The notes beneath the pieces are model-generated. The model did not search any database, was not told where the DNA came from, and worked only from the letters and a program-made list of their open reading frames with translations. A program made the translations under genes and the position numbers. Shown here piece after piece: positions 394-17,345 of a stretch of DNA of 64,000 nt; the first letter of the stretch is position 1; each line of letters starts with the position of its first letter. Source of the stretch: an uncultured bacterium (GTDB taxonomy: Bacteria > Patescibacteriota > Minisyncoccia > Phycocordibacterales > CAIRYW01); the NCBI GenBank assembly GCA_903882905.1, contig CAIRYW010000027.1:1031-65030 (forward strand). The letters are read 5' to 3'.

Positions 394-2133
394 ATGATTA
401 TAAATGTAGAACAACTAGAAAAGTTCGTTATCGATTCAGGGTTAATTTCAAAAACTGATTTTGCTATTGCCAAAAAAGAATCAGAAGAAAAAAATCAAAG
501 CATTGGAAAAGTTTTAATAAGCGAAGGTAAAATAAGCGAAGATGATTTTAGCCGAATCAGTGCCTATATTTTAGGAATTCCTTTTGTTGATTTAAATGAA
601 AAAAAATTAGACCTAGATACACTTTCATTAATTCCAGAGCCAATTGCGAGGAAACACAATCTTATTGCCTTTAAGAAAACTGAAACAGAGCTTGAAGTTG
701 CAATGCTTGATACTGACGATCTTTCAGAAATAGATTTCATCAAGAAAAAAACTGGTTTGAGAATTTTACCAAGACTAACAAACGTAGAGTCAATTAAATC
801 AGGAATACTTCAATATCAAAAAAGTCTTAAAGCAGATTTCGGAGACATTATTAAGACTGAATCAGATTCTCTCCCAACTCATTCAACTGATGATAGTGCG
901 GATGCTTTAAAGAAAATGGCGGAAGATGTTCCTGTGGTTCGAATCGTAGACACTCTACTCAAGCATGCTATTTTACAATCTGCTTCTGATATTCACATTG
1001 AGCCGTATGAGAATGAAGTCATTATCCGTTATCGGGTGGATGGAATACTTCATGATGTTATGATCTTGCCAAAAAATACCGGAGCGGGTATTACCGCTAG
1101 AATTAAAGTTCTTTCAAGTCTTAAGTTAGATGAAAAGAGACTTCCACAAGACGGTAGATTTAAAATTGATATCGGAATTGAAAAAGTTTCTTTTAGAGTT
1201 TCGATGTTGCCAACTTATTATGGTGAAAAAACTGTAATGCGATTACTTCGCGAAAATTCTTCAGGATTTACACTCGAAGGTTTGGGATTTTATGGAGAAG
1301 GTTTAGAAAAAATCCACGAAGCGACAAGACTTACTACTGGAATGTTTTTAACTACAGGACCTACTGGAAGCGGAAAGACAACTACACTTTATACTTTGCT
1401 TGAACTTTTAAACACACCTAATGTAAATATTTCAACGATTGAAGATCCTATCGAGTATCAGATGCAGAGAATCAATCAAACTCAAGTAAAGCCTGAAATT
1501 GGTTTTACTTTTTCCTCAGGATTAAGATCTTTGGTTAGACAAGATCCAGACATAATAATGGTGGGAGAAATTCGAGATAATGAAACAGCATCTCTTGCAA
1601 TTAATGCAGCTCTTACTGGGCACTTAGTGCTTTCAACTTTGCACACAAACTCTGCTGCAGGAGCAATCCCAAGACTTATAGATATGAAATGTGAACCATT
1701 TCTTTTGGTCTCAACAATTAAAATAGTCATTGGGCAGAGGCTTGTGAGAAGATTGGAGAAACCAAAAGATAAATATAAACTTTCTGCATCGGAGTTAAAA
1801 AATCTTATTTCAAAAATCAATGCACCAAAAGTTTTGGAGGTACTTAAAACAGAAAAAATAATTGGTCCAGATGTTGATTGGAAAGATGTGGAGTTTTGGA
1901 AACAAAATCCATCAAAAGAATATCCAGATGGATATCATTCTAGAATTGGTATTTATGAAATTCTTAGAGTCACTCCAACGATTAGGGAACTGATTATGAA
2001 AAATGCTTCTTCGGATGATATTGATATACAAGCAAAAAAAGAAGGAATGCTTTCTATGGTAGAGGATGGAATTGTTAAAGCCGTTAAAGGTTTGACTACC
2101 ATTGAAGAAGTTCTCAGGGTGATTTCAGAGTAA
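394..2133 (+). CDS. pilB: Type IV pilus assembly ATPase PilB (GspE/PilB family)
   Basis: N-terminal GSPII-like domain. Walker A GPTGSGKTT, Asp box, His box (LSTLHTN), typical of secretion ATPases. 579 aa. Confidence 0.9.
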   Translation: MIINVEQLEKFVIDSGLISKTDFAIAKKESEEKNQSIGKVLISEGKISEDDFSRISAYILGIPFVDLNEKKLDLDTLSLIPEPIARKHNLIAFKKTETELEVAMLDTDDLSEIDFIKKKTGLRILPRLTNVESIKSGILQYQKSLKADFGDIIKTESDSLPTHSTDDSADALKKMAEDVPVVRIVDTLLKHAILQSASDIHIEPYENEVIIRYRVDGILHDVMILPKNTGAGITARIKVLSSLKLDEKRLPQDGRFKIDIGIEKVSFRVSMLPTYYGEKTVMRLLRENSSGFTLEGLGFYGEGLEKIHEATRLTTGMFLTTGPTGSGKTTTLYTLLELLNTPNVNISTIEDPIEYQMQRINQTQVKPEIGFTFSSGLRSLVRQDPDIIMVGEIRDNETASLAINAALTGHLVLSTLHTNSAAGAIPRLIDMKCEPFLLVSTIKIVIGQRLVRRLEKPKDKYKLSASELKNLISKINAPKVLEVLKTEKIIGPDVDWKDVEFWKQNPSKEYPDGYHSRIGIYEILRVTPTIRELIMKNASSDDIDIQAKKEGMLSMVEDGIVKAVKGLTTIEEVLRVISE

Positions 2134-2190
2134 GTTTTTGGCATTGTTTCGTAATTTATAAATCCAATAAAAGGTGTTATATTTTTAGGT

Positions 2191-4068
2191 ATGGAAAAAC
2201 CAAATTTCAACAACCCCGAATTTCTCGACAAAAAATATCCAGACCTAGCTGGCTCAAAACCTGTTGAGAGAGCTAGTTTTCAAGCTCGAAGAGACGGAGA
2301 ATCTCCTCATACCAGAGCAGAAAGAGTTGATGCTTACTTAGACAGGCTAGAAAAAGTTTTTAATGCTAAAAATGAAGCAGGAGAAGATCGAGGTTTTGAA
2401 CTTCTGAAACAAATGGTTCTTGATGAATATGTCACCAAACCAGAAGAAATACCAGAATCATACTGGAAACTTCAGGAAAATATTATGCGTGAACGTGGGC
2501 AACTTGGCGACTATCAAAATGCTTCAGAGGAACAAAAAGCAGAAATGAAAAGACAAAACTCCGAAGGAGTGCTTTCTGATCAAAAATCATCTCTTGAACA
2601 GTGGTTAGACTATTTTCATTCCACAGACTCAAATTACATTCCTCGAGAATTAAAATACTGGATTTTTAGAAATGTCATAAAACTTCAAGAATTTGATAAA
2701 GAGAAAAAAGAATTTACAAAAAGATCAAAAGGTACTGTTAAACAATTTCCTGATATTAATTACGAAGCTCTCGGTTATGTTGTTGATGCAGTGATAAAAA
2801 AATATGAAGGAAAACCTCTCGAATGGGAACACGATATCCAACCAGCTGAAAGACAAGTTTTCGAACAACACTTAACTAAAGAAGATTTTTCCAAACTCTA
2901 TGCTTGGGCAAATGAATTAATGAATCCAATTCCTGAGCATCTTCTTCCTGTAAAAGAAGGTAAGTGGAGAAAGTTTGATCAAGACACCGATCCTCATGAA
3001 TTAGTCAAAACTATTCGAGGAAAAGGGACTGGCTGGTGCACAGCCGGTGAGCAAACAGCAAAAACACAATTATCTGCAGGTGATTTTTATGTTTTCTATT
3101 CTTTGGACGACGAAAAAAAACCAACTATCCCAAGAATCGCAATCCGTATGGAAAGTGGAAAAATAGCAGAAGTGCGAGGAGTAGCTTACAAACAAAACCT
3201 CGACCCACACATGGGAAAAGTCTTGGAAGATAAACTCAATGAGTTTCCCGACAAAGATCAATATTTGAAAAAAGAAAGAGATATGCAAAGGCTTACGGAT
3301 ATTGAGAAGAAAACCAAAACAGGAGAAAAACTTTCAAAAACAGAACTGGAATTTATATACGAAATCAACTCTACCATCGAAGGCTTCGGTTATCAAAAAG
3401 ACCCTCGCATTGAAGAAATTAGAAGCAAAAGAAATGTCAAAGAAGATTTGCCAATTCTTTTTGCTTGCGAACCAAGCCAGATTGCCACAAATCAAAATGA
3501 AGTAGATGAAAATACTGTAGCTTACATTGGAAAATGGAACGTAGACATATACAACCAAATCAAACAATATCCAAACATAAAACATATCTACGAATCTTTC
3601 CCAGACAAGAAAATATTTATGATGACACTAGAAACTGACCCAGCAGTAAATTCTCCAGAAACAGCTGAAGCGAAACTAAAAGGAAAATCAATCTATCTAT
3701 CTGACTGGGGAAAAGATATTTTATACAAAACAGAATTCAGTAAGAAAAAAGAAAATTACGAATTGGTAAGGTTTACTGTAGGTGAACTTGGCTTTCCAAA
3801 CGGTGCCACAACAGATGAAATATACGCAAAAGCAGAAACATTAGAATTAGATTTGTGTCCCGCAGAAGTTGGTCCACAACTTCGCTTGTCTTATGAAGGA
3901 AAAGAATGGATGTTGATTGCTATGAAACAAATTACCGACCGCGATGGCTACCCGTGCGTGTTCGACCTGTACGGCGATGGTGCGGGGTTGCCGCTCGATG
4001 GCCGCAATGCCGAGCCAGACTTCAGGTGGCGTTCTGACTTCAAGTTCGTGTTCCTCTCTCGCAAGTAA
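2191..4068 (+). CDS. DGR target (variable) protein. A 625-aa protein with no obvious signal peptide, whose C-terminal about 46 codons are encoded by the variable repeat
   Basis: The 3' end (3927-4065) is a diverged copy of the TR at 4381-4519, differing only at TR adenine positions. The TR is rich in AAC (Asn) codons in the frame of this ORF. Confidence 0.8.
   Translation: MEKPNFNNPEFLDKKYPDLAGSKPVERASFQARRDGESPHTRAERVDAYLDRLEKVFNAKNEAGEDRGFELLKQMVLDEYVTKPEEIPESYWKLQENIMRERGQLGDYQNASEEQKAEMKRQNSEGVLSDQKSSLEQWLDYFHSTDSNYIPRELKYWIFRNVIKLQEFDKEKKEFTKRSKGTVKQFPDINYEALGYVVDAVIKKYEGKPLEWEHDIQPAERQVFEQHLTKEDFSKLYAWANELMNPIPEHLLPVKEGKWRKFDQDTDPHELVKTIRGKGTGWCTAGEQTAKTQLSAGDFYVFYSLDDEKKPTIPRIAIRMESGKIAEVRGVAYKQNLDPHMGKVLEDKLNEFPDKDQYLKKERDMQRLTDIEKKTKTGEKLSKTELEFIYEINSTIEGFGYQKDPRIEEIRSKRNVKEDLPILFACEPSQIATNQNEVDENTVAYIGKWNVDIYNQIKQYPNIKHIYESFPDKKIFMMTLETDPAVNSPETAEAKLKGKSIYLSDWGKDILYKTEFSKKKENYELVRFTVGELGFPNGATTDEIYAKAETLELDLCPAEVGPQLRLSYEGKEWMLIAMKQITDRDGYPCVFDLYGDGAGLPLDGRNAEPDFRWRSDFKFVFLSRK
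3927..4065 (+). repeat. DGR variable repeat (VR), 139 bp
   Basis: Hand alignment to 4381-4519 gives 115/139 identical positions. All 24 differences are at positions where the TR has A. The last 24 nt are identical except one A-to-C. Confidence 0.85.
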
Positions 4069-4380
4069 ACTTTAATTCTTAAACTCTTTGTATTTTTTTG
4101 ATTCTTTAAAACTTTGAATTTTTGATACTTTGAAATTTTTTTTGCTATACTAATTTCGGTTTGGTTAACGAGACGGCTACGGTTTTCTCGAACCTCTCCA
4201 GTTGGCGCATATTGAGAATGCAAATGGCCACGGCTTTTTGCAGAGGATGTGCGTTTTCTTTCAAAAAAAGAAATCAACTTGGTGTGCGATGCTCGAGGAT
4301 TTTCGATTCCAAATAACATACAGCTGAATTTTTGTATTTTTTAAATATTCAAATTGGCAATGGTAAAGATGGCATTGCAT

Positions 4381-4519
4381 ACAAATTACCGACCGCGATG
4401 ACAACCCGAACGTGTTCAACCTGAACAGCGATGATGCGAAGTTGAAACTCAATGGCAACAATGCCAAGCCAGACAACAGGTGGAATTCTGACAACAAGTT
4501 CGTGTTCCTCTCTCGAAAG
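4381..4519 (+). repeat. DGR template repeat (TR), 139 bp, followed by a hairpin (ccgcac ttacaac gtgcgg) and a T-run
   Basis: Invariant partner of the VR. It has 47 adenines, of which 24 are substituted in the VR, and none of the 92 non-A positions differ. It is rich in AAC codons. Confidence 0.85.
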
Positions 4520-4536
4520 TGTTTACTTTTCCGCAC

Positions 4537-4941
4537 TTACAACGTGCGGTTTTTCTTTTCGGGGTTTTCTAGACTTTTTCTCCAGCCACCAAGTATTTTT
4601 CCTATTTCTTCAAGTTTGAGAGCGACTTCCTCATATTGTTTGTGGGAAATGAGTCTGGCTTCCCAAGCTACATGCATTAAAAATTTTAAGGTATCTAAAC
4701 AAAGAATGCATCTGGAGACTTTTTCCGATTTTTTCTCTTTTTCGGTAAAATAGGCTATATATGAAAGTTCCAAAAGATCTAAAAATTTATTTTCAATTCT
4801 CCCGCCAATTGTATAACGTTGGTTTTTTGGAATATGATTAGCAATACTAAGCCAAATCAAATATCCCTCTTTGATTCGTTGGAGAATAGAAGTGTCACCA
4901 CCGAGAGAGAGAGAGAGAGAGAGAGTAGAAGGCTTCGCCAT
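4537..4941 (-). CDS. avd: DGR accessory variability determinant (Avd)-like four-helix-bundle protein (TIGR02436-like)
   Basis: 134 aa. The core …RIKEGYLIWLSIANHIPKNQRYTIGGRIENKFLDLLELSY… resembles the four-helix-bundle / 23S-IVS-protein family typical of Avd. It is encoded antisense to the TR-RT transcript. The N-terminal LSLSLSL is encoded by the (GA)n tract. Confidence 0.6.
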   Translation of the reverse strand: MAKPSTLSLSLSLGGDTSILQRIKEGYLIWLSIANHIPKNQRYTIGGRIENKFLDLLELSYIAYFTEKEKKSEKVSRCILCLDTLKFLMHVAWEARLISHKQYEEVALKLEEIGKILGGWRKSLENPEKKNRTL

Positions 4942-5919
4942 AAATATAAAGATATCATATCTGTAGAAAATTTACTTGCCTCTTGGCGAGAATTTTTGAA
5001 AGATAAGAAAAAGAAAAAAGATGTTGCTGAATTTTCTTTACATTTTTTAGATAATGTTTTTTATTTGCATAATAGTTTGAAGGATAAAACGTATACTCAT
5101 GGTGAATATAAACCGTTCAAAATCTCCGACCCGAAACCTCGTGATATTCACAAAGCTTCGGTTCGCGATAGGTTACTCCACCATGCAATTTACAGAATTC
5201 TATCCCCATATTTTGATGAGAAATTTATTTTTGATTCTTACTCTTGTCGTCTAGGTAAGGGAACGCATAGGGCAATGAATCGTTTTAGATATTTTGCAAG
5301 AAAAGTTTCCAAAAATCATACAAAAACATGCTGGGTACTAAAGTGTGATATCCGTAAATTTTTTGCCAGTATTGACCACCAAATTTTATTTGAAATTTTG
5401 AAGAAAAATATCAGAGACAAAGATATTGTTTGGCTTTTAATACAGGTGATATCAAGTTTTAACACACAATGCAAAACTAATGTCGGTTTACCTCTTGGTA
5501 ATTTAACCTCACAACTTTTGGTAAATATTTATATGAACGAATTTGACCACTTTATGAAAAGACAACTAAAGGTAAAATATTATATTCGTTATGCCGATGA
5601 TTTTGTGATTCTTTCTGAAGATCAAGTTTACCTTGAGAAACTTACCGTACAAATCTATCAATTTTTAGAACAAAAATTAAAACTCTATTTACACCCAAAC
5701 AAAGTGTTTGTTAAAACTTATGCTTCAGGAGTGGATTTCCTTGGATGGGTACACTTTCCAAATCATAGAGTTTTAAGGACAAGTACAAAAAGGAGAATGT
5801 TCAAAAATATTTCAGCTAAAAATTTTTCCTCTTACACAGGACTTTGTGAACACGGAGACGCTCATGAATTATCACAAGAATGTTATAATATTATTAAGAA
5901 AAAAACTGATGAAATTTAA
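4819..5919 (+). CDS. DGR-type reverse transcriptase
   Basis: RT motifs are present, including the YADD box (YIRYADDFVILS). The DGR-specific motif LPLGNLTSQLLVNIY ([I/L]GxxxSQ replaces QGxxxSP) is present. The N-terminus …ENLLASWREFLKDKKK… matches the DGR RT consensus. The size, about 360 aa, is typical. The true start is uncertain, because the ORF-track start overlaps avd on the opposite strand. Confidence 0.85.
   Translation: MVFWNMISNTKPNQISLFDSLENRSVTTERERERESRRLRHKYKDIISVENLLASWREFLKDKKKKKDVAEFSLHFLDNVFYLHNSLKDKTYTHGEYKPFKISDPKPRDIHKASVRDRLLHHAIYRILSPYFDEKFIFDSYSCRLGKGTHRAMNRFRYFARKVSKNHTKTCWVLKCDIRKFFASIDHQILFEILKKNIRDKDIVWLLIQVISSFNTQCKTNVGLPLGNLTSQLLVNIYMNEFDHFMKRQLKVKYYIRYADDFVILSEDQVYLEKLTVQIYQFLEQKLKLYLHPNKVFVKTYASGVDFLGWVHFPNHRVLRTSTKRRMFKNISAKNFSSYTGLCEHGDAHELSQECYNIIKKKTDEI
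4903..4925. repeat. (GA)n dinucleotide microsatellite, about 11.5 units, 23 nt
   Basis: gagagagagagagagagagagag. It lies in the overlap of the predicted 5' ends of avd (minus strand) and the RT ORF (plus strand). Confidence 0.9.
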
Positions 5920-7120
5920 AGTTACATATAAAAATGGCGATAATACAGGTGAAGGGGTTTTTGAAGCTCTTGATAAATTTGAATTGTTTAATGAATTAAA
6001 AAAAGAAGGTCTTTCTCTTATAAAATTTTCAGAAATAAAAAAACATAATTTAAATATCGATATTCCTTTTTTAAGTGCAAATAAAATAAAATTTCATGAC
6101 AGAATTATTTTTGCTAGAAATTTAGGTTCGATGCTCAAAGCAGGACTTCCTCTTTCCAGAGCTCTTCAGGTTATTGAAAAACAGTCCAAGTCGCCCAAGA
6201 TGAAAAGTGTTCTTAACACTCTCATTAAAAATATTGCTGAAGGGAAAACTCTAAATCAATCTCTTTCACTCTTTCCAGAAAATTTTAATTCTTTAGTTAC
6301 ATCAATGGTTAGAGCTGGGGAGGAAAGTGGATCACTTGCCGAATCCTTAAAACTCGTAGCTGATCAAATGGAGAAAAATTATACTTTGATGAAAAAAGTT
6401 AAAGGGGCCATGATCTATCCTGCTATTATCCTTAGTGTCATGGTTGTAATTGGAATTTTGATGCTTGTTTATGTGGTACCGGGTTTGACAGCAACCTTTA
6501 CAGAGCTTCATGCAGATTTACCTTTTTCAACAAAAGTAGTCTTGGGTATAAGTGATTTGCTTCAAAATCATTATATTCTTATGCTTGCTGGTTTAATTGC
6601 AATAATATTTATTTTTATTTCTACGATTCGTACAAAAAAAGGTAAATGGTTTATTGATAGAGCAATTATTAAAATTCCAGTTATTGGTGAAATAGTTGTT
6701 CAAACAAATTCTGCAAGGACCACAAGAACAATGTCTTCACTTCTAGCTTCTGGTGTGGAAGTTGTAAAGTGTGCGCAGATTACCAGAGACGTACTTCAAA
6801 ATTCTTTATATAGAGATGTTATGGAAAAAGTTTCAGTCGCTATCCAAAAAGGGCAACCAATTTCAAAGGTATTTGAAGATTACGAAAGTATTTATCCAGC
6901 TTTTGTTGCGGAAATGGCAAGCGTAGGCGAAGAGACGGGGAAACTCTCTGAAATGTTCGGGCAAACAGCTGAATATTATGAAGAAGAAGTCGAGCAAAAA
7001 ACTAAAGACATGTCGCAGATTGTTGAACCGTTTCTCATGGTAATTATTGGACTTGCAGTAGGTTTCTTTGCTGTTTCTATGATTACTCCAATGTACACAG
7101 TACTTAATAATATTAATTAA
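5846..7120 (+). CDS. pilC: Type IV pilus inner-membrane platform protein PilC (GspF family)
   Basis: Two GspF repeats and 3 TM segments. The probable true start is MKFKV at about 5909, which overlaps the RT stop by a few nt. Confidence 0.85.
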   Translation: MNTETLMNYHKNVIILLRKKLMKFKVTYKNGDNTGEGVFEALDKFELFNELKKEGLSLIKFSEIKKHNLNIDIPFLSANKIKFHDRIIFARNLGSMLKAGLPLSRALQVIEKQSKSPKMKSVLNTLIKNIAEGKTLNQSLSLFPENFNSLVTSMVRAGEESGSLAESLKLVADQMEKNYTLMKKVKGAMIYPAIILSVMVVIGILMLVYVVPGLTATFTELHADLPFSTKVVLGISDLLQNHYILMLAGLIAIIFIFISTIRTKKGKWFIDRAIIKIPVIGEIVVQTNSARTTRTMSSLLASGVEVVKCAQITRDVLQNSLYRDVMEKVSVAIQKGQPISKVFEDYESIYPAFVAEMASVGEETGKLSEMFGQTAEYYEEEVEQKTKDMSQIVEPFLMVIIGLAVGFFAVSMITPMYTVLNNIN

Positions 7121-7657
7121 TTGTTTAAAAAAAATAAATCAAAAATAAAGACCCAGCACCTTTTCCGCTCTGGCGGAAAAGGTGCTGGGTTTAGCTTGAT
7201 CGAAATAATTATTGCATCAGCAGTCATGCTTATTGTTTGGCTTACTGTTTTTTACACTTTTTCGGTACTGACTCAATTTACTTCAAAAAATACAAATTCT
7301 ATAAAAGCTTCTATGCTTCTTGAAGAGGGCAGTGAAGCTCTTCGTTCTCTTAGAGATTCGTCTTGGAAAACAAATATTGCTCCACTTAGTTCTGGTGTGG
7401 ATTATCGACTTTTATATAGTATGTCTACGGATTCTTGGACCATTATTAATGAGCCGTCAATGATTGATGGAAAATTTGATAGAACTTTTTCTCTTTCTGA
7501 TGTTTCAAGAGACTCATCAACTTTTAATGTTGTGTCTTCTGGTGGTGTATTTGATGCAGATAGCAAGAAGGTAGATATAACTGTTTCTTGGTATCAAGGG
7601 AATGCTACAACTAGTGAAAGTTTAGAAACTTATATATTCAATGACTTCAATAAATAA
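7121..7657 (+). CDS. Prepilin-type (class III signal peptide) pilin/pseudopilin
   Basis: G|FSLIEIIIASAVMLIV prepilin cleavage/methylation motif. It has a TTG start. A 17-bp-stem hairpin is encoded inside the leader (7143-7183). Confidence 0.7.
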   Translation: MFKKNKSKIKTQHLFRSGGKGAGFSLIEIIIASAVMLIVWLTVFYTFSVLTQFTSKNTNSIKASMLLEEGSEALRSLRDSSWKTNIAPLSSGVDYRLLYSMSTDSWTIINEPSMIDGKFDRTFSLSDVSRDSSTFNVVSSGGVFDADSKKVDITVSWYQGNATTSESLETYIFNDFNK

Positions 7658-8182
7658 ATGACTAATAACTCAAAACTCAAAATTCATGACTCAGGCTTCA
7701 GTCTCATTGAAATTATTATTTATATTTCTCTATTAGCCATTTTTATTGGGGCCATTACTTGGAGTTTTTCTGTTATTTTTCATTCTTACAATAGGATGAA
7801 AAATGAGCGCGCCGTAGAAAATTCCGCGATGGTTTCAATGGATAGAATAGTTCGAGAAATTAGAAATTCAAAATCTGTTGATTTGGTAAATACAGCAACC
7901 TCAACTCCAAATGGATATTTAACATTAAATAATTTTGATTCATATCAAAATCCTGGAACTGTAAGATTTTATCTTTTAGACAATCGAATTTATGAAGACA
8001 AAAATGGGACAACTTTAGGTCCACTTACTTCAGAAGATACTGATGTTTCATCTTTAGTCTTTAGATATTTCACAAGTGCTAGTTCGACGGGGATAAAAAT
8101 TGAAATGGCAATTCAGGCCTCAAATATTCCTGTGAATAATTTTTATGATTCAGCAATTTTGAGAAATTCATATGAAAACTGA
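7658..8182 (+). CDS. Prepilin-type minor pilin
   Basis: MTNNSKLKIHDSG|FSLIEIIIYISLLAIF, followed by a hydrophobic helix. Confidence 0.7.
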   Translation: MTNNSKLKIHDSGFSLIEIIIYISLLAIFIGAITWSFSVIFHSYNRMKNERAVENSAMVSMDRIVREIRNSKSVDLVNTATSTPNGYLTLNNFDSYQNPGTVRFYLLDNRIYEDKNGTTLGPLTSEDTDVSSLVFRYFTSASSTGIKIEMAIQASNIPVNNFYDSAILRNSYEN

Positions 8183-9608
8183 TAATAAAATTGTAAAAAA
8201 AAATAAAGGGCAGGTCGTCATGGTGACCTTAATATTTTTTATTATTATTTCGCTCACACTTATTTCAGGTGGAACCCTGCCGACAGGAAGTCAGGTAAAA
8301 AATTCAAGCGATTTTTTGAAATCAAAACAAAGTTATATTGCCGCTGATGTGGCAAACGATAATGCGTTTTATATGATAAACAAAGGTCACGAAGTTTCAG
8401 TTGGTGCTACTCTTCCATTTTCCTCTGGAGATCTGTCAGATTCAATAGCTATTACAGATTCGGCAAATAAAAAACAAATAATTACGACTGGAAATTCTAC
8501 TTCAAATACTCGGCTTTCAGAAATAGTTTTGTCCCAAAACTTTGGCTTAAATCTTAAATATGCAATTCAAGCTGGAACGGGCGGGCTAACTATGACAAGA
8601 GGGGCTGTGAACGGGGATGTTTATTCAAACGGGAATATTTCTGGGGGAGAGAATTTAACTATTTCAGGTTCAACGACTGTTGCTTATCGAGATTCAACCA
8701 ACGTCGGTAAAATTATAGGAACTTCAAGCGATTTTAATAAGCCACTCAATATTACAGGAAATGCTTGGGCTCATGAAATTGATTTTACAAAAGTTTTGGG
8801 TACTGGTTTTTGTCAGGTAAAAAATTATTTACTTGATTCATCCGGAAATTCTATAAGTTGTGATACTTCAAAGAGCTCCGATCCAACTTCTTTGAATTTT
8901 CCAATTACAGATACAAATATTTCTGATTGGAAAACTGCAGTCTCAAATCAAACGGATATAGTTTCAGATGTTGATACTTATACAGGAGACATAGATGTGG
9001 GTCACACTGGGACAAGTACTTCGATAAAAAAAATATCTGGAAATTTAACTCTAGCTTGCGATAGTGGAAATCCAGCAAACTTTGGAAATCTTTATGTGAC
9101 AGGGAATATTAATGTAAGTAACGGCTGTCTATTTAATGTAGATGCACTCCATGTCGGAGGAAACCTTTCAATTACAGGAGATGGAATTTTAAATTTAGGT
9201 GAGGTGAGTTTTGTTGGCGGAAGTGTAGCACTTTCCGGTTCAGGAAAAATTCAGCTTGATAGTTCTCTTGGAACTAACAGTGGATACATTATTTCTGGAG
9301 GAATTATGGATTTGTCAGGTAGTGGATCGTTAAATGGTTCTGATGTATCTGGAAGTTTTTTGACTCTAATTACAACAAGTTCAAGCGTAAGTACTGTGAA
9401 TGTTTCCAGTGGTGGTTCTGGTGTTGTTATTTTGGCACCAAATGGAGAAGTTAATCTTTCTAATGGTTCGCTAGGCGGAATAGTTGCTAAGACTGTCAAC
9501 ATTGGTGGAGGAGATTTAACTTATGACTCGAATATGGCGAACATAGTTTTTGGAGGAGTTCCTTTTGGAAAGTGGCATATTCTAGATTGGAGTGAAGTTT
9601 TAAATTAA
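8172..9608 (+). CDS. Large PilX-like minor pilin / pilus tip-associated protein with a Gly/Ser/Asn-rich repetitive (beta-helix-like) C-terminal region
   Basis: The N-terminus KGQVVMVTLIFFIIISLTLISG resembles the PilX N-terminal domain. 478 aa with repeated GN.S.TG / GS.SLNGS segments. Confidence 0.5.
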   Translation: MKTDNKIVKKNKGQVVMVTLIFFIIISLTLISGGTLPTGSQVKNSSDFLKSKQSYIAADVANDNAFYMINKGHEVSVGATLPFSSGDLSDSIAITDSANKKQIITTGNSTSNTRLSEIVLSQNFGLNLKYAIQAGTGGLTMTRGAVNGDVYSNGNISGGENLTISGSTTVAYRDSTNVGKIIGTSSDFNKPLNITGNAWAHEIDFTKVLGTGFCQVKNYLLDSSGNSISCDTSKSSDPTSLNFPITDTNISDWKTAVSNQTDIVSDVDTYTGDIDVGHTGTSTSIKKISGNLTLACDSGNPANFGNLYVTGNINVSNGCLFNVDALHVGGNLSITGDGILNLGEVSFVGGSVALSGSGKIQLDSSLGTNSGYIISGGIMDLSGSGSLNGSDVSGSFLTLITTSSSVSTVNVSSGGSGVVILAPNGEVNLSNGSLGGIVAKTVNIGGGDLTYDSNMANIVFGGVPFGKWHILDWSEVLN

Positions 9609-15857: not shown

Positions 15858-17345
15858 ATGATCGGTAAAATAGTTTGTTTTTTTCTTACAGGATGTTTGT
15901 TGGGAGTATTTATTACTTCCATAAATTTAATCCCTAAATATTTTGGGGTATTTTTTCTTTTGATTTCAGTTTCCTTTCTGGTTTCGGGTATTTTAGAAGA
16001 AAAATTATATAAAAAAGATTCTTTTATCTTATTTCTTATATCCGTTTTCTTTCTCGGTATTTTTGTTGGAGGACTAAGATTTAATGAAGTAGAGAAAAAT
16101 TTTTCTGATTCTGAATTAAATAAATACAATGGCCAGAAAATAATTCTCAGTGGATTTGAAAAAAGAGAACTGAGTTCGTCGGGAGGTAACCAGAGATTTA
16201 TTTTTAAAGCAGATGAAATTGTCACTGAATTTGGTAGAGAAAAAGTTAATTCAGGTTCAAATATTTTATTAGTAGTTCCTGAAAATTTTGAGTATTCATA
16301 CGGTGAAGGTTTAGAAATTCGAGGCAGTTTGAAACCGATTAAAAATTTTGATGATTCTTTTGACTATGCTTCGTATGAAAAAAAAGATGGAGTACTATAT
16401 GAAATTTATTTTCCGCAAATAATAACGGACAACGGATTTACAGGAAATATTTTCTTACAGAAAATTTATTTGGTAAAAAGTTATTTAGAAGAAAATATCA
16501 CGAAATATTTTTTGGAGCCGTACTCGTCTCTACTTGATGGAATGGTTATCGCTGGCAAAGCTGCGTTGCCAAAAAATCTCTCTGATTCTTTTTTACACGC
16601 AGGTATTGTTCATATTGTAGTTTTATCTGGTTACAATATCGCTTTGGTTATTTCATTTGCAACTATAATTTTTTCTGGTATTCACATAAGACGGAGAATT
16701 TTTGTTATCTTTTTTCTCCTAATAGTTTTTTGTTTAATGGCAGGACTTTCGGCTTCAGTTATTCGCGCAGCAATTGCAGCGGTTATAGGATTATCTGGAA
16801 AAATTTTAGGGAGAAAAATTAGGCAGAATAGAGCATTGCTTCTTGGAGCTACTTTAATGGTTTTATGGAATCCATATACATTAGTTTTTGATCCATCTTT
16901 TGCATTAACTTTTCTTGCTACTTTTGCAATTATAAATGTCTCACCTGTTATGGAAGAAAAATTAATTGGAATTACTGAAAGATTTGGAGTGAGAGAAATT
17001 TTAGCTCAAACAATTTCGGCTGAAATTTTAGTGACACCTTATATCCTCTATCAAATGGGAAATTTTTCTGTCTTGGCCCCTGTTACAAATATTTTGGTTT
17101 TGCCAGTTGTACCTTTTATAACTATTGGAGGAATAATTTTGGGAGTGTTTGGTTTTTTGGGATACATTCTTTATCCATTAATTTTAGCTCTGCAATTTTC
17201 ACTTGCTTGGGTTGTGTTTGTGGCGCAAATGATAAATAAAATTCCTGGGAGTTTTGTTTATCTTGCAAATTTCTCGATTTTCTCATGTCTAGCTATATAT
17301 TTTTTAGAATTGGTTTTGTATTTTGTCTTTAGAAAAAAAACTTAA
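15858..17345 (+). CDS. comEC: ComEC/Rec2-family DNA internalisation channel protein (competence domain only, no MBL domain)
   Basis: Multi-TM protein. LHAGIVHIVVLSGYNIALV matches the ComEC competence-domain signature (…SHLLAISGLH…). Confidence 0.7.
   Translation: MIGKIVCFFLTGCLLGVFITSINLIPKYFGVFFLLISVSFLVSGILEEKLYKKDSFILFLISVFFLGIFVGGLRFNEVEKNFSDSELNKYNGQKIILSGFEKRELSSSGGNQRFIFKADEIVTEFGREKVNSGSNILLVVPENFEYSYGEGLEIRGSLKPIKNFDDSFDYASYEKKDGVLYEIYFPQIITDNGFTGNIFLQKIYLVKSYLEENITKYFLEPYSSLLDGMVIAGKAALPKNLSDSFLHAGIVHIVVLSGYNIALVISFATIIFSGIHIRRRIFVIFFLLIVFCLMAGLSASVIRAAIAAVIGLSGKILGRKIRQNRALLLGATLMVLWNPYTLVFDPSFALTFLATFAIINVSPVMEEKLIGITERFGVREILAQTISAEILVTPYILYQMGNFSVLAPVTNILVLPVVPFITIGGIILGVFGFLGYILYPLILALQFSLAWVVFVAQMINKIPGSFVYLANFSIFSCLAIYFLELVLYFVFRKKT

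Follow-up and report, generated by a model that had tools for sequence, protein, structure and literature searches.

In CPR bacteria, DGRs typically show the B3 architecture, TR-(avd)-RT, in which the template repeat (TR) lies 5' of a reverse-strand avd gene that is followed by the reverse transcriptase (RT) gene, and genes for ribosomal proteins have been observed among the DGR genes (Wu et al. 2018, PMC5758913). The proteins diversified by these systems typically carry no transmembrane or other recognisable domains, and they have neither export signals nor known domains (Roux et al. 2021, PMC8144416). The DGR of Bordetella phage BPP-1 (mtd-avd-TR-brt) has avd, TR and brt co-oriented and co-transcribed, and its variable repeat (VR) lies in a C-type-lectin fold at the secreted tip of the tail fibre. 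A DGR physically beside pilus genes has a precedent in Bacteroides, where DGRs are reported to diversify the tip adhesins of type V pili, the variable protein itself being a pilus subunit (bioRxiv 10.1101/2024.11.15.621889). Hints at what CPR DGR targets do are rare, and a reliable genomic association would have been one.

Here we analysed a DGR that lies between pilB and pilC in a Paceibacteria pilus locus, a location for which no description was found in the papers searched. On the window (the whole stretch of 64,000 nucleotides that was analysed), the order is pilB, DGR target with its VR, TR, avd, RT, pilC, two prepilin-like genes, and a gene for a large membrane-anchored protein:

394..2133, + strand: pilB, opening the locus; assembly ATPase of the type IV pilus (PF00437 T2SSE, E=1e-117; PF05157 MshEN)
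2191..4068, + strand: DGR target gene, 625 aa, soluble, of an uncharacterised CPR family, with a putative C-terminal C-type-lectin fold
3927..4066, + strand: VR, within the 3' end of the target ORF (140 nt; 83% identity with the TR)
4122..4151, + strand: predicted extended -10 promoter of the TR RNA (TTGATA, 18 nt, TGCTATACT; 10/12 matches with TG in the promoter scan)
4152..4380, + strand: conserved structured leader of the TR RNA (RNAalifold on 12 DGRs)
4381..4520, + strand: TR, 140-nt match to the VR
4531..4559, + strand: GC-rich hairpin and U-run directly 3' of the TR, overlapping the avd stop codon (terminator scan)
4537..4941, - strand: avd (accessory variability determinant), opposite in direction to the other cassette genes (PF22296 bAvd, E=1e-14; NCBIfam DivGenRetAVD, E=7.5e-21)
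4834..5919, + strand: DGR RT, start uncertain (PF00078, E=4e-26; LGNLTSQ and YADD motifs)
4903..4925, no strand: (GA)11 simple-sequence repeat in the overlapping 5' ends of avd and the RT ORF, reading LSLSLSLS in avd
5909..7120, + strand: pilC, platform protein (PF00482 T2SSF, two domains, E=5e-58)
7121..7657, + strand: prepilin-like protein 1 (GFSLIE after a 24-aa leader; weak matches to PF07963 and TIGR02532)
7658..8182, + strand: prepilin-like protein 2 (GFSLIE in the motif scan; PF07963, E=4e-5)
8172..9608, + strand: gene closing the pilus block, for a conserved protein of 478 aa with one hydrophobic helix near its N-terminus
15858-17345: comEC (PF03772)

This order, including comEC at 15858, agrees with that of a first-pass annotation made from the sequence alone; the one correction concerns avd, which is encoded on the minus strand and so runs against the other genes of the cassette. 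We consider it probable that the cassette is a complete, self-contained B3 DGR of the CPR type, tolerated as an insertion at a site that repeatedly takes up accessory genes, and that it has no functional partnership with the pilus.

Like the CPR DGRs described earlier (PMC5758913; DGR clade 2 of Roux et al. 2021, PMC8144416), the cassette has the identical core order with antisense avd (TR 4381-4520, +; avd 4941-4537, -; RT to 5919, +), the RT motifs [ILV]GxxxSQ and YADD, adenine-specific TR/VR differences, housekeeping genes interleaved with DGR genes, and a soluble target in which no domain is recognisable except the putative C-terminal C-type-lectin-like VR domain. The same B3 core was present in 21/21 related loci checked. 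Each of the 24 TR/VR mismatches faces an adenine of the TR, and most fall on the first or second base of a codon; with 47 A in the 140 nt of the TR, the chance of this adenine confinement is ~0.34^24, or ~4e-12, and the repeat pair is of the DGR kind. The RT likewise carries the DGR-type motif 4 and YxDD, and its nearest relatives (58-73% identity) are CPR DGR RTs that own TR/VR pairs. Its ORF opens at 4819, and gene callers chose the ATG at 4834, giving 361 aa; no canonical start lies beside the avd ATG. The DGR accessory protein is also present: Avd scored 55 bits against PF22296 (cut-off 40) and 74.4 bits against DivGenRetAVD, just below the curated cut-off of 80. The components and the inferred mechanism, in which RT-Avd would copy TR RNA into the VR with A-to-N errors, are those of BPP-1, as is the putative fold around the VR. 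Unlike in BPP-1, however, avd is antisense, the TR apparently has its own terminated transcript, no GC-rich cruciform was found 3' of the VR (the hairpin sits after the TR), and the target is soluble and without an export signal.

The target ORF had no match in Pfam or NCBIfam. Its N-terminus is hydrophilic, its 19-residue hydropathy reaches a maximum of only 0.31, so that it has no hydrophobic segment, and scans found no signal peptide, transmembrane segment or G/FxxxE prepilin motif, in line with the first-pass remark that signal peptide and prepilin leader are missing. Its 90% cluster contains one sequence. A phage or plasmid origin was considered and rejected: the phage collection searched gave no match, and the plasmid collection gave only small proteins from Bacillus and Bradyrhizobium plasmids, which match the C-terminal 150 aa at 31-34% and have no DGR beside them. 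The window holds no second copy of the cassette. The cassette may be active at present; ongoing diversification was not seen in contigs from three other samples, which were 100% identical through the VR, these being assembly consensus sequences fetched by exact protein match. Nor was presence polymorphism of the cassette seen, as all contigs with an identical PilB carry the target too.

The genes around the cassette form a type IV pilus/T2SS-like operon, with both a T2SSE ATPase and a T2SSF platform protein. PilB shares 63-91% identity with its counterparts in 80 Paceibacteria loci, and the true start of pilC is the ATG at 5909 (MKFKVTYKNG), since the N-terminus is the same in two relatives (L004 and L005). 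Both small proteins carry the class III (G/FxxxE) signal as GFSLIE, and the first is kept 3' of pilC in relatives; a prepilin motif scan of the 64 kb returned these two GFSLIE ORFs and nothing more. The 478-aa protein, earlier called PilX-like, matched no family in Pfam or NCBIfam and has no GFxxxE-type motif; its hydrophobic helix spans residues 15-33 (KD19 = 2.66), and most relatives have the protein at the same place in the locus. Peptidase_A24 and PilM_2 were absent from the Pfam-scanned ORFs (feature region to comEC), and the prepilin peptidase, PilM/N/O and the major pilin presumably sit elsewhere in the genome. The locus thus resembles other Paceibacteria type IV pilus operons, in which PilB, PilC, two GFxxxE proteins and a large anchored protein are followed by tpi and pgk, an order that holds in most of the 80 relatives. 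It differs from them in that a 3.8-kb foreign cassette splits the pilB-pilC pair and in that pilC is fused to the reading unit of the RT.

Comparison with relatives supports the insertion proposed in the first-pass annotation. Among the 76 Paceibacteria relatives that have both genes, the pilB-pilC gap is ≤150 nt in 64, 151-400 nt in 7 and >1 kb in 5, so that the two are, as had been supposed, almost always adjacent, and in the near relative L004 the site is empty: 22 nt separate pilB from pilC, and the genes that follow are the same. (What looked like a pilC frameshift in one relative, L112, is only a scaffold gap of Ns.) Close relatives that carry the same gene without a VR, which would have marked it as resident in the operon, were not found, and this outcome favours a nested cassette. 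The junction repeats that an insertion might have left were also looked for: the window shows neither junction repeats nor target-site duplications, and it has no recombinase. The genome L005 is sister to that of the window (pilB DNA 83% identical, against 80% to L004), and it has a different DGR at the same junction, with an RT and Avd that are 63% and 34% identical to ours and fall in separate sub-clades, as two trees agree, and with a target of 209 aa that is unrelated to the 625-aa target here. REP-like GTCATTCCCG...CGGGAAT palindromes flank the L005 cassette and are absent from the window; REP-like palindromes also fill the spacer of another relative (L035). The spacer further holds other genes of DGR-target families in L009 and L021, HicAB in L014, and NUDIX and other genes in L048, and the targets that other genomes have at this junction fall into four or more unrelated families. 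Because a second DGR, target-like genes, a toxin-antitoxin pair and miscellaneous genes have all settled there, the pilB-pilC junction is, judged from these genomes, a recurrent accessory-gene site, and the presence of different DGRs at one junction in sister species points to cassette turnover.

The target family occurs mostly at a distance from pilus genes. Homologues over the full length of the target (39-50% identity), accompanied by an Avd and an RT of the same clade, adjoin frr, glgA and ruvA and lie near lepA-murJ; the closest homologues (73-74%) adjoin parB-topA and alaS, with no RT called nearby; and cassettes beside rpoB and secE-nusG (two) share only the C-terminal lectin domain with the target. 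In 9/12 related cassettes a co-directional host gene follows the RT within 300 nt, and in 7/12 within 55 nt. The RT stop (5917-5919) overlaps the pilC start, as the first-pass annotation had noted, and the overlap measures 11 nt; since most related cassettes have a co-directional host gene close 3' of the RT, the abutment on pilC appears to be the usual habit of these elements.

The TR is probably transcribed on its own. A TTTTTTGnTATAMT block ~230 nt 5' of the TR is kept across 12 aligned DGRs, with TATA-T invariant and TG nearly so, and these 12 include 5 in which the target gene is inverted; a generic sigma-70 scan was uninformative in this AT-rich DNA (30 matches against 32 expected). In the leader that follows, RNAalifold on the 12 DGRs gave 53 pairs, of which 43 show compensatory double changes; the covariation term was -12.2 kcal/mol. 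The hairpin after the TR, which looks like an intrinsic terminator or else a 3' structure of the TR RNA, has an equivalent with a TTTTGTTT run in 7/7 related DGRs, where the structure is the same and the sequence different. The leader matched no family in Rfam, and the CPR DGR literature searched held no description of the TR promoter, leader or terminator, or of the repeat tract shared by avd and RT. The leader RNA may be new.

These elements, whose promoter and terminator calls are sequence predictions, speak against the earlier proposal that the entire cassette is transcribed together with the pilus genes. Because the TR has its own conserved promoter, a hairpin and U-run follow it in 7/7 related DGRs, and avd is antisense, read-through from pilB to pilC seems unlikely; with a terminator and an antisense gene now between them, the old operon has most likely been split in two, and pilC would be read from the RT side. 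In the mechanism that we propose, a CPR-type B3 DGR would have entered the short pilB-pilC spacer of a Paceibacteria pilus locus, bringing the target with its VR, the TR RNA gene, antisense avd and the RT in that order. A TR RNA of ~400 nt would start at its own extended -10 promoter and comprise the structured leader, the TR and the terminator hairpin; avd and RT would be read divergently from back-to-back 5' ends; and RT-Avd would copy the TR RNA into the VR of the soluble target, with its putative C-type-lectin fold, making errors specifically at adenines. One transcription unit would consist of pilB, perhaps with the target, and another, tightly packed in translation, of RT, pilC, the pilin genes and the large protein.

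Several other readings were weighed against that of a tolerated, self-contained insertion. The whole pilB-pilC-pilin-tpi-pgk block might be a place where DGR cassettes and targets preferentially land or recombine, because of recombination in the region, the import of foreign DNA or a context that favours expression, and their products would not act on the pilus. DGRs or DGR-target-like genes lie within 10 kb of pilB in 16/80 relatives, 5 of them with an RT, and these loci hold 7 TR/VR pairs in 6 genomes. They occur 5' of pilB (L031, L052, L053, L078; 4/5 upstream matches within 2.7 kb of it), between pilB and pilC (the window, L005, L009, L021), in the pilin region (L056), between tpi and pgk (L043, L052) and after pgk (L011, L016, L028, L066, L083), and the use of the spacer by non-DGR accessory genes and the REP-like palindromes of L005 and L035 fit as well. 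The 5 RT-bearing loci look to be above a rough random expectation of 1-2, a baseline that is a guess. When loci were anchored on the RT instead, however, only 1/14 with long flanks abuts pilus machinery (L094, directly 5' of a second, pilT-type pilus operon), and at two others the 10-kb surroundings include just a pilM or one N_methyl gene, which is about chance for ~0.8-Mb genomes with several pilus loci, although these 14, drawn from 18 mostly short metagenome loci and 7 look-ups, are too few to tell 3% from 9% adjacency. As the window also shows neither junction repeats nor a recombinase, we regard such a regional preference as rather unlikely, and it would refine the insertion reading, not exclude it. 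An ancestral origin of target and cassette in the operon, followed by loss in most relatives, would account for the DGR at the same junction in the sister genome; given that 71/76 diverse relatives have gaps of ≤400 nt (64 of ≤150 nt), that the L005 cassette is of another RT/Avd sub-clade with an unrelated target, and that L004 has a clean 22-nt spacer, it is very improbable.

A functional tie, in which the pilus or the DNA-uptake machinery would have the variable protein as its partner (a diversified adaptor or adhesin, or a cytoplasmic sensor of pilus-borne intake) and in which co-location and co-expression were selected, draws on the overlap of the RT stop with the pilC start, the recurrence of DGR targets near type IV pilus genes, the Bacteroides precedent and the reported role of type IV pili in host binding in Saccharibacteria (PMC12206443). 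The target, however, has none of the features of an exported or pilin-like protein, and here the locus departs from Bacteroides; the same family is DGR-diversified in many non-pilus neighbourhoods, with its closest homologues off pilus loci; targets at the same junction elsewhere come from at least four unrelated families; and the conserved terminator parts target and TR from RT and pilC. We therefore hold functional coupling to be improbable, and the pilus-linked adhesin suggested earlier finds no support in a protein that lacks a hydrophobic segment and has homologues beside frr, glgA, ruvA, lepA-murJ and parB-topA. Similarly doubtful is a broader form, in which DGR cassettes and soluble variable proteins would be drawn to the pilus/DNA-uptake locus by a joint function, for example as diversified cytoplasmic sensors or adaptors for material entering through the pilus, and RT-pilC coupling together with a phase-variable (GA)n/poly-G switch where avd and RT begin would tie hypermutation to pilus expression.

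Under the insertion reading, the pilus context gives no functional clue for this target family, which spares effort on an unsupported adhesin model. It draws attention instead to how such cassettes live in tiny, tightly packed genomes, namely inside housekeeping arrays and with a TR promoter and terminator of their own; as the RT leads directly on to whichever host gene comes next, genes of the host, pilC among them, may end up relying on the promoters of the retroelement.

Testable candidates for a part in DGR priming and switching are the structured leader of the TR RNA and the repeat tract that would set the frame of avd. A (GA)7-16 or poly-G7-12 tract occupies the same place in 22/24 related DGRs with the region available, an in-frame ATG lies 5' of it in only 5 to 7 of the 24, and variation in its length appears to put avd out of frame in most relatives. 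The codons right after the tract are probably translated, because the variation there is synonymous. Programmed frameshifting at the tract was considered and rejected, as the shifts needed are mixed (9 at -1, 7 at +1) and no single slip direction fits. Two loci that are 97% identical (L095 and L096) differ by 2 nt at the tract, and this length-variable repeat at the 5' ends of avd and RT may be new.

The left end of the window holds a type IV pilus block with a complete diversity-generating retroelement (DGR) inside it, whose features are as follows (window coordinates).

Features of the pilus block and the DGR cassette
394-2133: PilB (T2SSE, E=1e-117)
2191-4068, plus strand: target ORF of 625 aa, without a family match
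3927-4066: variable repeat (VR), 140 nt
4381-4520: template repeat (TR), 140 nt
4537-4941, minus strand: accessory variability determinant (avd)
end at 5919: reverse transcriptase (RT), with motifs LGNLTSQ and YADD
start ATG at 5909: PilC (T2SSF, two domains), with N-terminus MKFKVTYKNG, identical in relatives
7121-7657: first small protein with a GFSLIE prepilin motif
7658-8182: second small protein with a GFSLIE prepilin motif
8172-9608: 478-aa protein with a single N-terminal hydrophobic helix

The TR and VR were 83% identical, and 24 of their 24 mismatches fell at TR adenines (chance probability ~4e-12, with A at 47 of the 140 TR bases); this A-specific pattern and the RT motifs therefore establish the cassette as a genuine DGR. 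The first-pass annotation had placed such an element between pilB and pilC, and target, TR/VR, avd, and RT were all found there, although avd lies on the minus strand and the layout it gave is to be corrected in this respect. Its overlap of the RT stop with the pilC start was confirmed (the pilC frame, opening at ATG 5909, overlaps the final RT codons and their stop, 5917-5919), as was a nearby comEC (15858). Between comEC and the pilus block lie tpi, pgk, a hypothetical gene, a HIT-family gene, recJ, a second hypothetical gene, and a gene for an RNase H. The order TR-(avd)-RT is architecture B3, which made up 90% of the CPR set in Wu et al. 2018 (PMC5758913), and the window DGR, of B3 architecture and clade 2, belongs to the same group as known CPR DGRs; its position within a pilB-pilC pair adds a new instance rather than a new kind.

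We then asked whether the cassette is an insertion or a resident part of the operon. A PilB scan with one genome per species yielded 80 loci, all from Paceibacteria/Parcubacteria metagenome-assembled genomes, and pilB-pilC gaps were measured by tblastn synteny in the 76 genomes with both genes. The gap was at most 150 nt in 64 of these, 151-400 nt in seven, and above 1 kb in five, and adjacency of pilB and pilC is therefore ancestral. The near relative L004 (PilB 90% identical) provides an empty site, with 22 nt between pilB and pilC and, downstream, the same pilins, large protein, tpi, and pgk. The insertion was precisely intergenic, as PilB and PilC both retain their full length at the window junctions. 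These comparisons support the earlier reading of the cassette as an insertion, while the junction repeats suggested as a further sign of it, direct or inverted, were absent at the window cassette.

The same junction has been used more than once. L005, the sister of the window genome (PilB 91% identical), also holds a DGR between pilB and pilC, but a different one: its 209-aa target is unrelated to the 625-aa window target outside the VR region, the cassette includes a RelB-like gene, and identity to the window is only 34% for Avd and 63% for RT. The pilB DNA is 83% identical between window and L005 and 80% between L004 and either of them; for pilC the values are 78% (window and L005), 74% (L004 and L005), and about 70% (window and L004, measured as one block from pilC through pgk). 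The RT and Avd trees were concordant, grouping the window with the related loci L083 and L087-L090, and L005 with L094, and these different groups and targets argue that the two sister genomes acquired or replaced their cassettes independently. Other relatives carry other cargo in the pilB-pilC spacer, namely two genes of other DGR-target families, one frameshifted, without a local TR (L009); a 248-aa protein with a VR-like C-terminus and without detectable similarity to other target families (L021); HicAB (L014); and a NUDIX gene with other small genes (L048). The spacer is thus a recurrent accessory-gene site, and the independent cassettes at one junction, a by-product of this analysis, may merit their own follow-up. 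REP-like palindromes (GTCATTCCCG-N-CGGGAAT) flank the L005 cassette in inverted orientation (L005 11764-11847 and 14945-14964), with the RT ORF running into one copy; the pilB-pilC spacer of L035 (11774-11837) is filled with them as well, they were listed for L059 and L086, and none of this type occurs in the window.

As for the effect on the pilus operon, a predicted terminator and the antisense avd lie between target and RT, and RT and pilC leave no room for signals between them. This arrangement suggests that transcription of pilC and the genes downstream most likely comes from the RT side, and that pilB, perhaps with the target, most likely forms a separate transcription unit. The proposed co-transcription with pilus genes would accordingly apply to RT-pilC and not to the whole cassette. 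We also observed a perfect GC-rich hairpin (18-bp stem, 4-nt loop; 7151-7190) in the part of the first prepilin-like gene that encodes the leader peptide, immediately 5' of the GFSLIE motif and 30 nt past the pilC stop. It occurs once in the window, is absent from the leader of the L005 orthologue, and could serve in processing, attenuation, or stability between pilC and the pilin genes.

A functional link to the pilus, with the target as a diversified adhesin, was not supported, given a target without export features and homologues in non-pilus neighbourhoods. The target has a hydrophilic N-terminus, no hydrophobic stretch (maximum 19-residue hydropathy 0.31), and no prepilin motif, and its family, which exceeds 3400 members in CPR, has no annotated member. 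Of the two closest homologues, one (74%) is flanked by parB and topA and the other (73%) follows an alaS-like gene; no RT was called within 10 kb of either. Full-length homologues at 39-50% identity are DGR targets of cassettes of the same RT/Avd clade in unrelated neighbourhoods (adjoining frr, glgA-glgP, and ruvA, and near lepA-murJ), and related cassettes with only the C-terminal target domain in common lie upstream of rpoB-rpoC and secE-nusG-rplKA. A co-directional host gene follows the RT within 300 nt in 9 of 12 related cassettes (within 55 nt in seven), so the RT running into pilC reflects the usual habit of these cassettes; ribosomal protein genes between CPR DGR genes were observed by Wu et al. 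(PMC5758913). In the nearest pilus-linked precedent, the Bacteroides type V pilus adhesin DGRs, the variable protein is a pilus subunit, whereas the window target is not (bioRxiv 10.1101/2024.11.15.621889).

Proximity to pilus genes was also assessed by counting. In 16 of the 80 loci, DGR cassettes or target-like genes occurred no more than 10 kb from pilB, and every boundary of the pilB-pgk block was represented; an RT was present in five of the 16 and TR/VR pairs in six (7 pairs in total). About two RT-bearing loci would be expected if each genome of roughly 0.8 Mb is assumed to carry one DGR, so a few-fold enrichment around the pilB block is possible under that assumption; in an RT-anchored sample, too small to decide enrichment, 1 of 14 loci adjoined pilus machinery. 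At L094 (437-9291), an RT-anchored DGR of the L005 sub-clade immediately precedes a pilus operon of a second, pilT type. There, 4 nt separate the RT stop from the next gene, and the products of the operon are a response regulator, a pilT-like ATPase, PilC, pilins (one bearing an F5/8 type C (discoidin) domain), and a PilD peptidase. Two DGR TR/VR pairs are found within 12 kb of pilB in the L052 genome (11-613 and 9534-12091), one upstream of pilB and the other between tpi and pgk, with the RT ending 28 nt before pgk.

CPR DGR targets have been described as lacking membrane or known domains, with function open (PMC8144416), and the window target fits this description. Its AlphaFold model was confident (pLDDT 88.9, with 72 homologues as input), and a BFVD search returned no match. 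The motif GKGTGWCTAG (residues 277-286), strictly or almost strictly conserved in the 72 homologues, sits in a central alpha/beta domain that weakly matches GNAT-like folds; the family is otherwise unannotated, and the motif may mark a ligand-binding or catalytic site. The C-terminal VR domain (residues 470-625) is 31-34% identical to small plasmid proteins (hits H1-H10) of Bacillus mycoides (annotated "helicase") and Bradyrhizobium (hypothetical or unannotated); no DGR lay beside the match at L114, the only one inspected.

Upstream of the TR, roughly 330 nt were aligned across 12 DGRs, five of them with the target gene inverted. Conserved across the 12 is an extended -10 element, TTTTTTGnTATAMT, with TATA-T invariant and TG nearly so; the window copy (TGCTATACT, 4143-4151, TTGATA 18 nt upstream) was the best plus-strand match of a promoter scan. 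The ~225-nt leader that follows, which includes two tandem hairpins with a ACGGYYACGGYTTT loop, shows strong covariation (compensatory double changes at 43 of 53 predicted pairs) and matched no Rfam family. Directly 3' of the TR, a GC-rich hairpin with a U-run is kept in structure and different in sequence in 7 of 7 DGRs (in the window CCGCAC-N7-GTGCGG TTTTTCTTTT, 4531-4559, overlapping the avd stop codon). Promoter, leader, and terminator-like hairpin make the TR look like part of an independent RNA gene (4122-4559, promoter included) with a terminated product of ~400 nt, unlike phage BPP-1, where avd-TR-brt form one operon. The leader is a candidate priming or RT-Avd recognition domain of CPR DGRs, and this structured RNA may deserve separate study as another by-product.

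The start codons of avd and RT stand back-to-back (CAT|ATG). A third such by-product is a frame-setting simple-sequence repeat (4903-4925) that follows the avd ATG, precedes the conserved Avd domain, and lies just upstream of where RT starts. Such a tract occurs in 22 of 24 DGRs, as (GA)7-16 in one sub-clade and poly-G7-12 in others (besides the window, at the relatives' loci L005, L052, L066, L078, L083, L087-L091, L094-L096, L098, L100, L101, L105-L109, and L111). Codons right after it vary synonymously and so are translated, yet no more than 5 to 7 of the 24, the window among them, have an in-frame ATG upstream. The frame shifts required are mixed (-1 and +1), and a 2-nt difference at the tract separates L095 from L096 (97% identical). 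Judged from these sequences, it looks like a phase-variable switch of avd, perhaps of RT too; no earlier report was found in the literature searched, and it may merit its own follow-up.

Past mutagenic homing is evident from the TR/VR footprint, and the window has intact avd, RT, and TR. No VR variants were found, as contigs from three other samples matched the window at 100% identity through the VR, and the 90% cluster of the target consists of one sequence; present-day diversification is therefore not demonstrated. The exact RT protein was recorded in one contig only. The contigs from the other samples (L001, L002, and L003), built by different assemblers, all end exactly at 4811, and this shared end (4811/4812), which falls inside avd and 92 nt short of the repeat tract, suggests either a repeat boundary or a fork between strains, with an alternative avd 5'/RT module.
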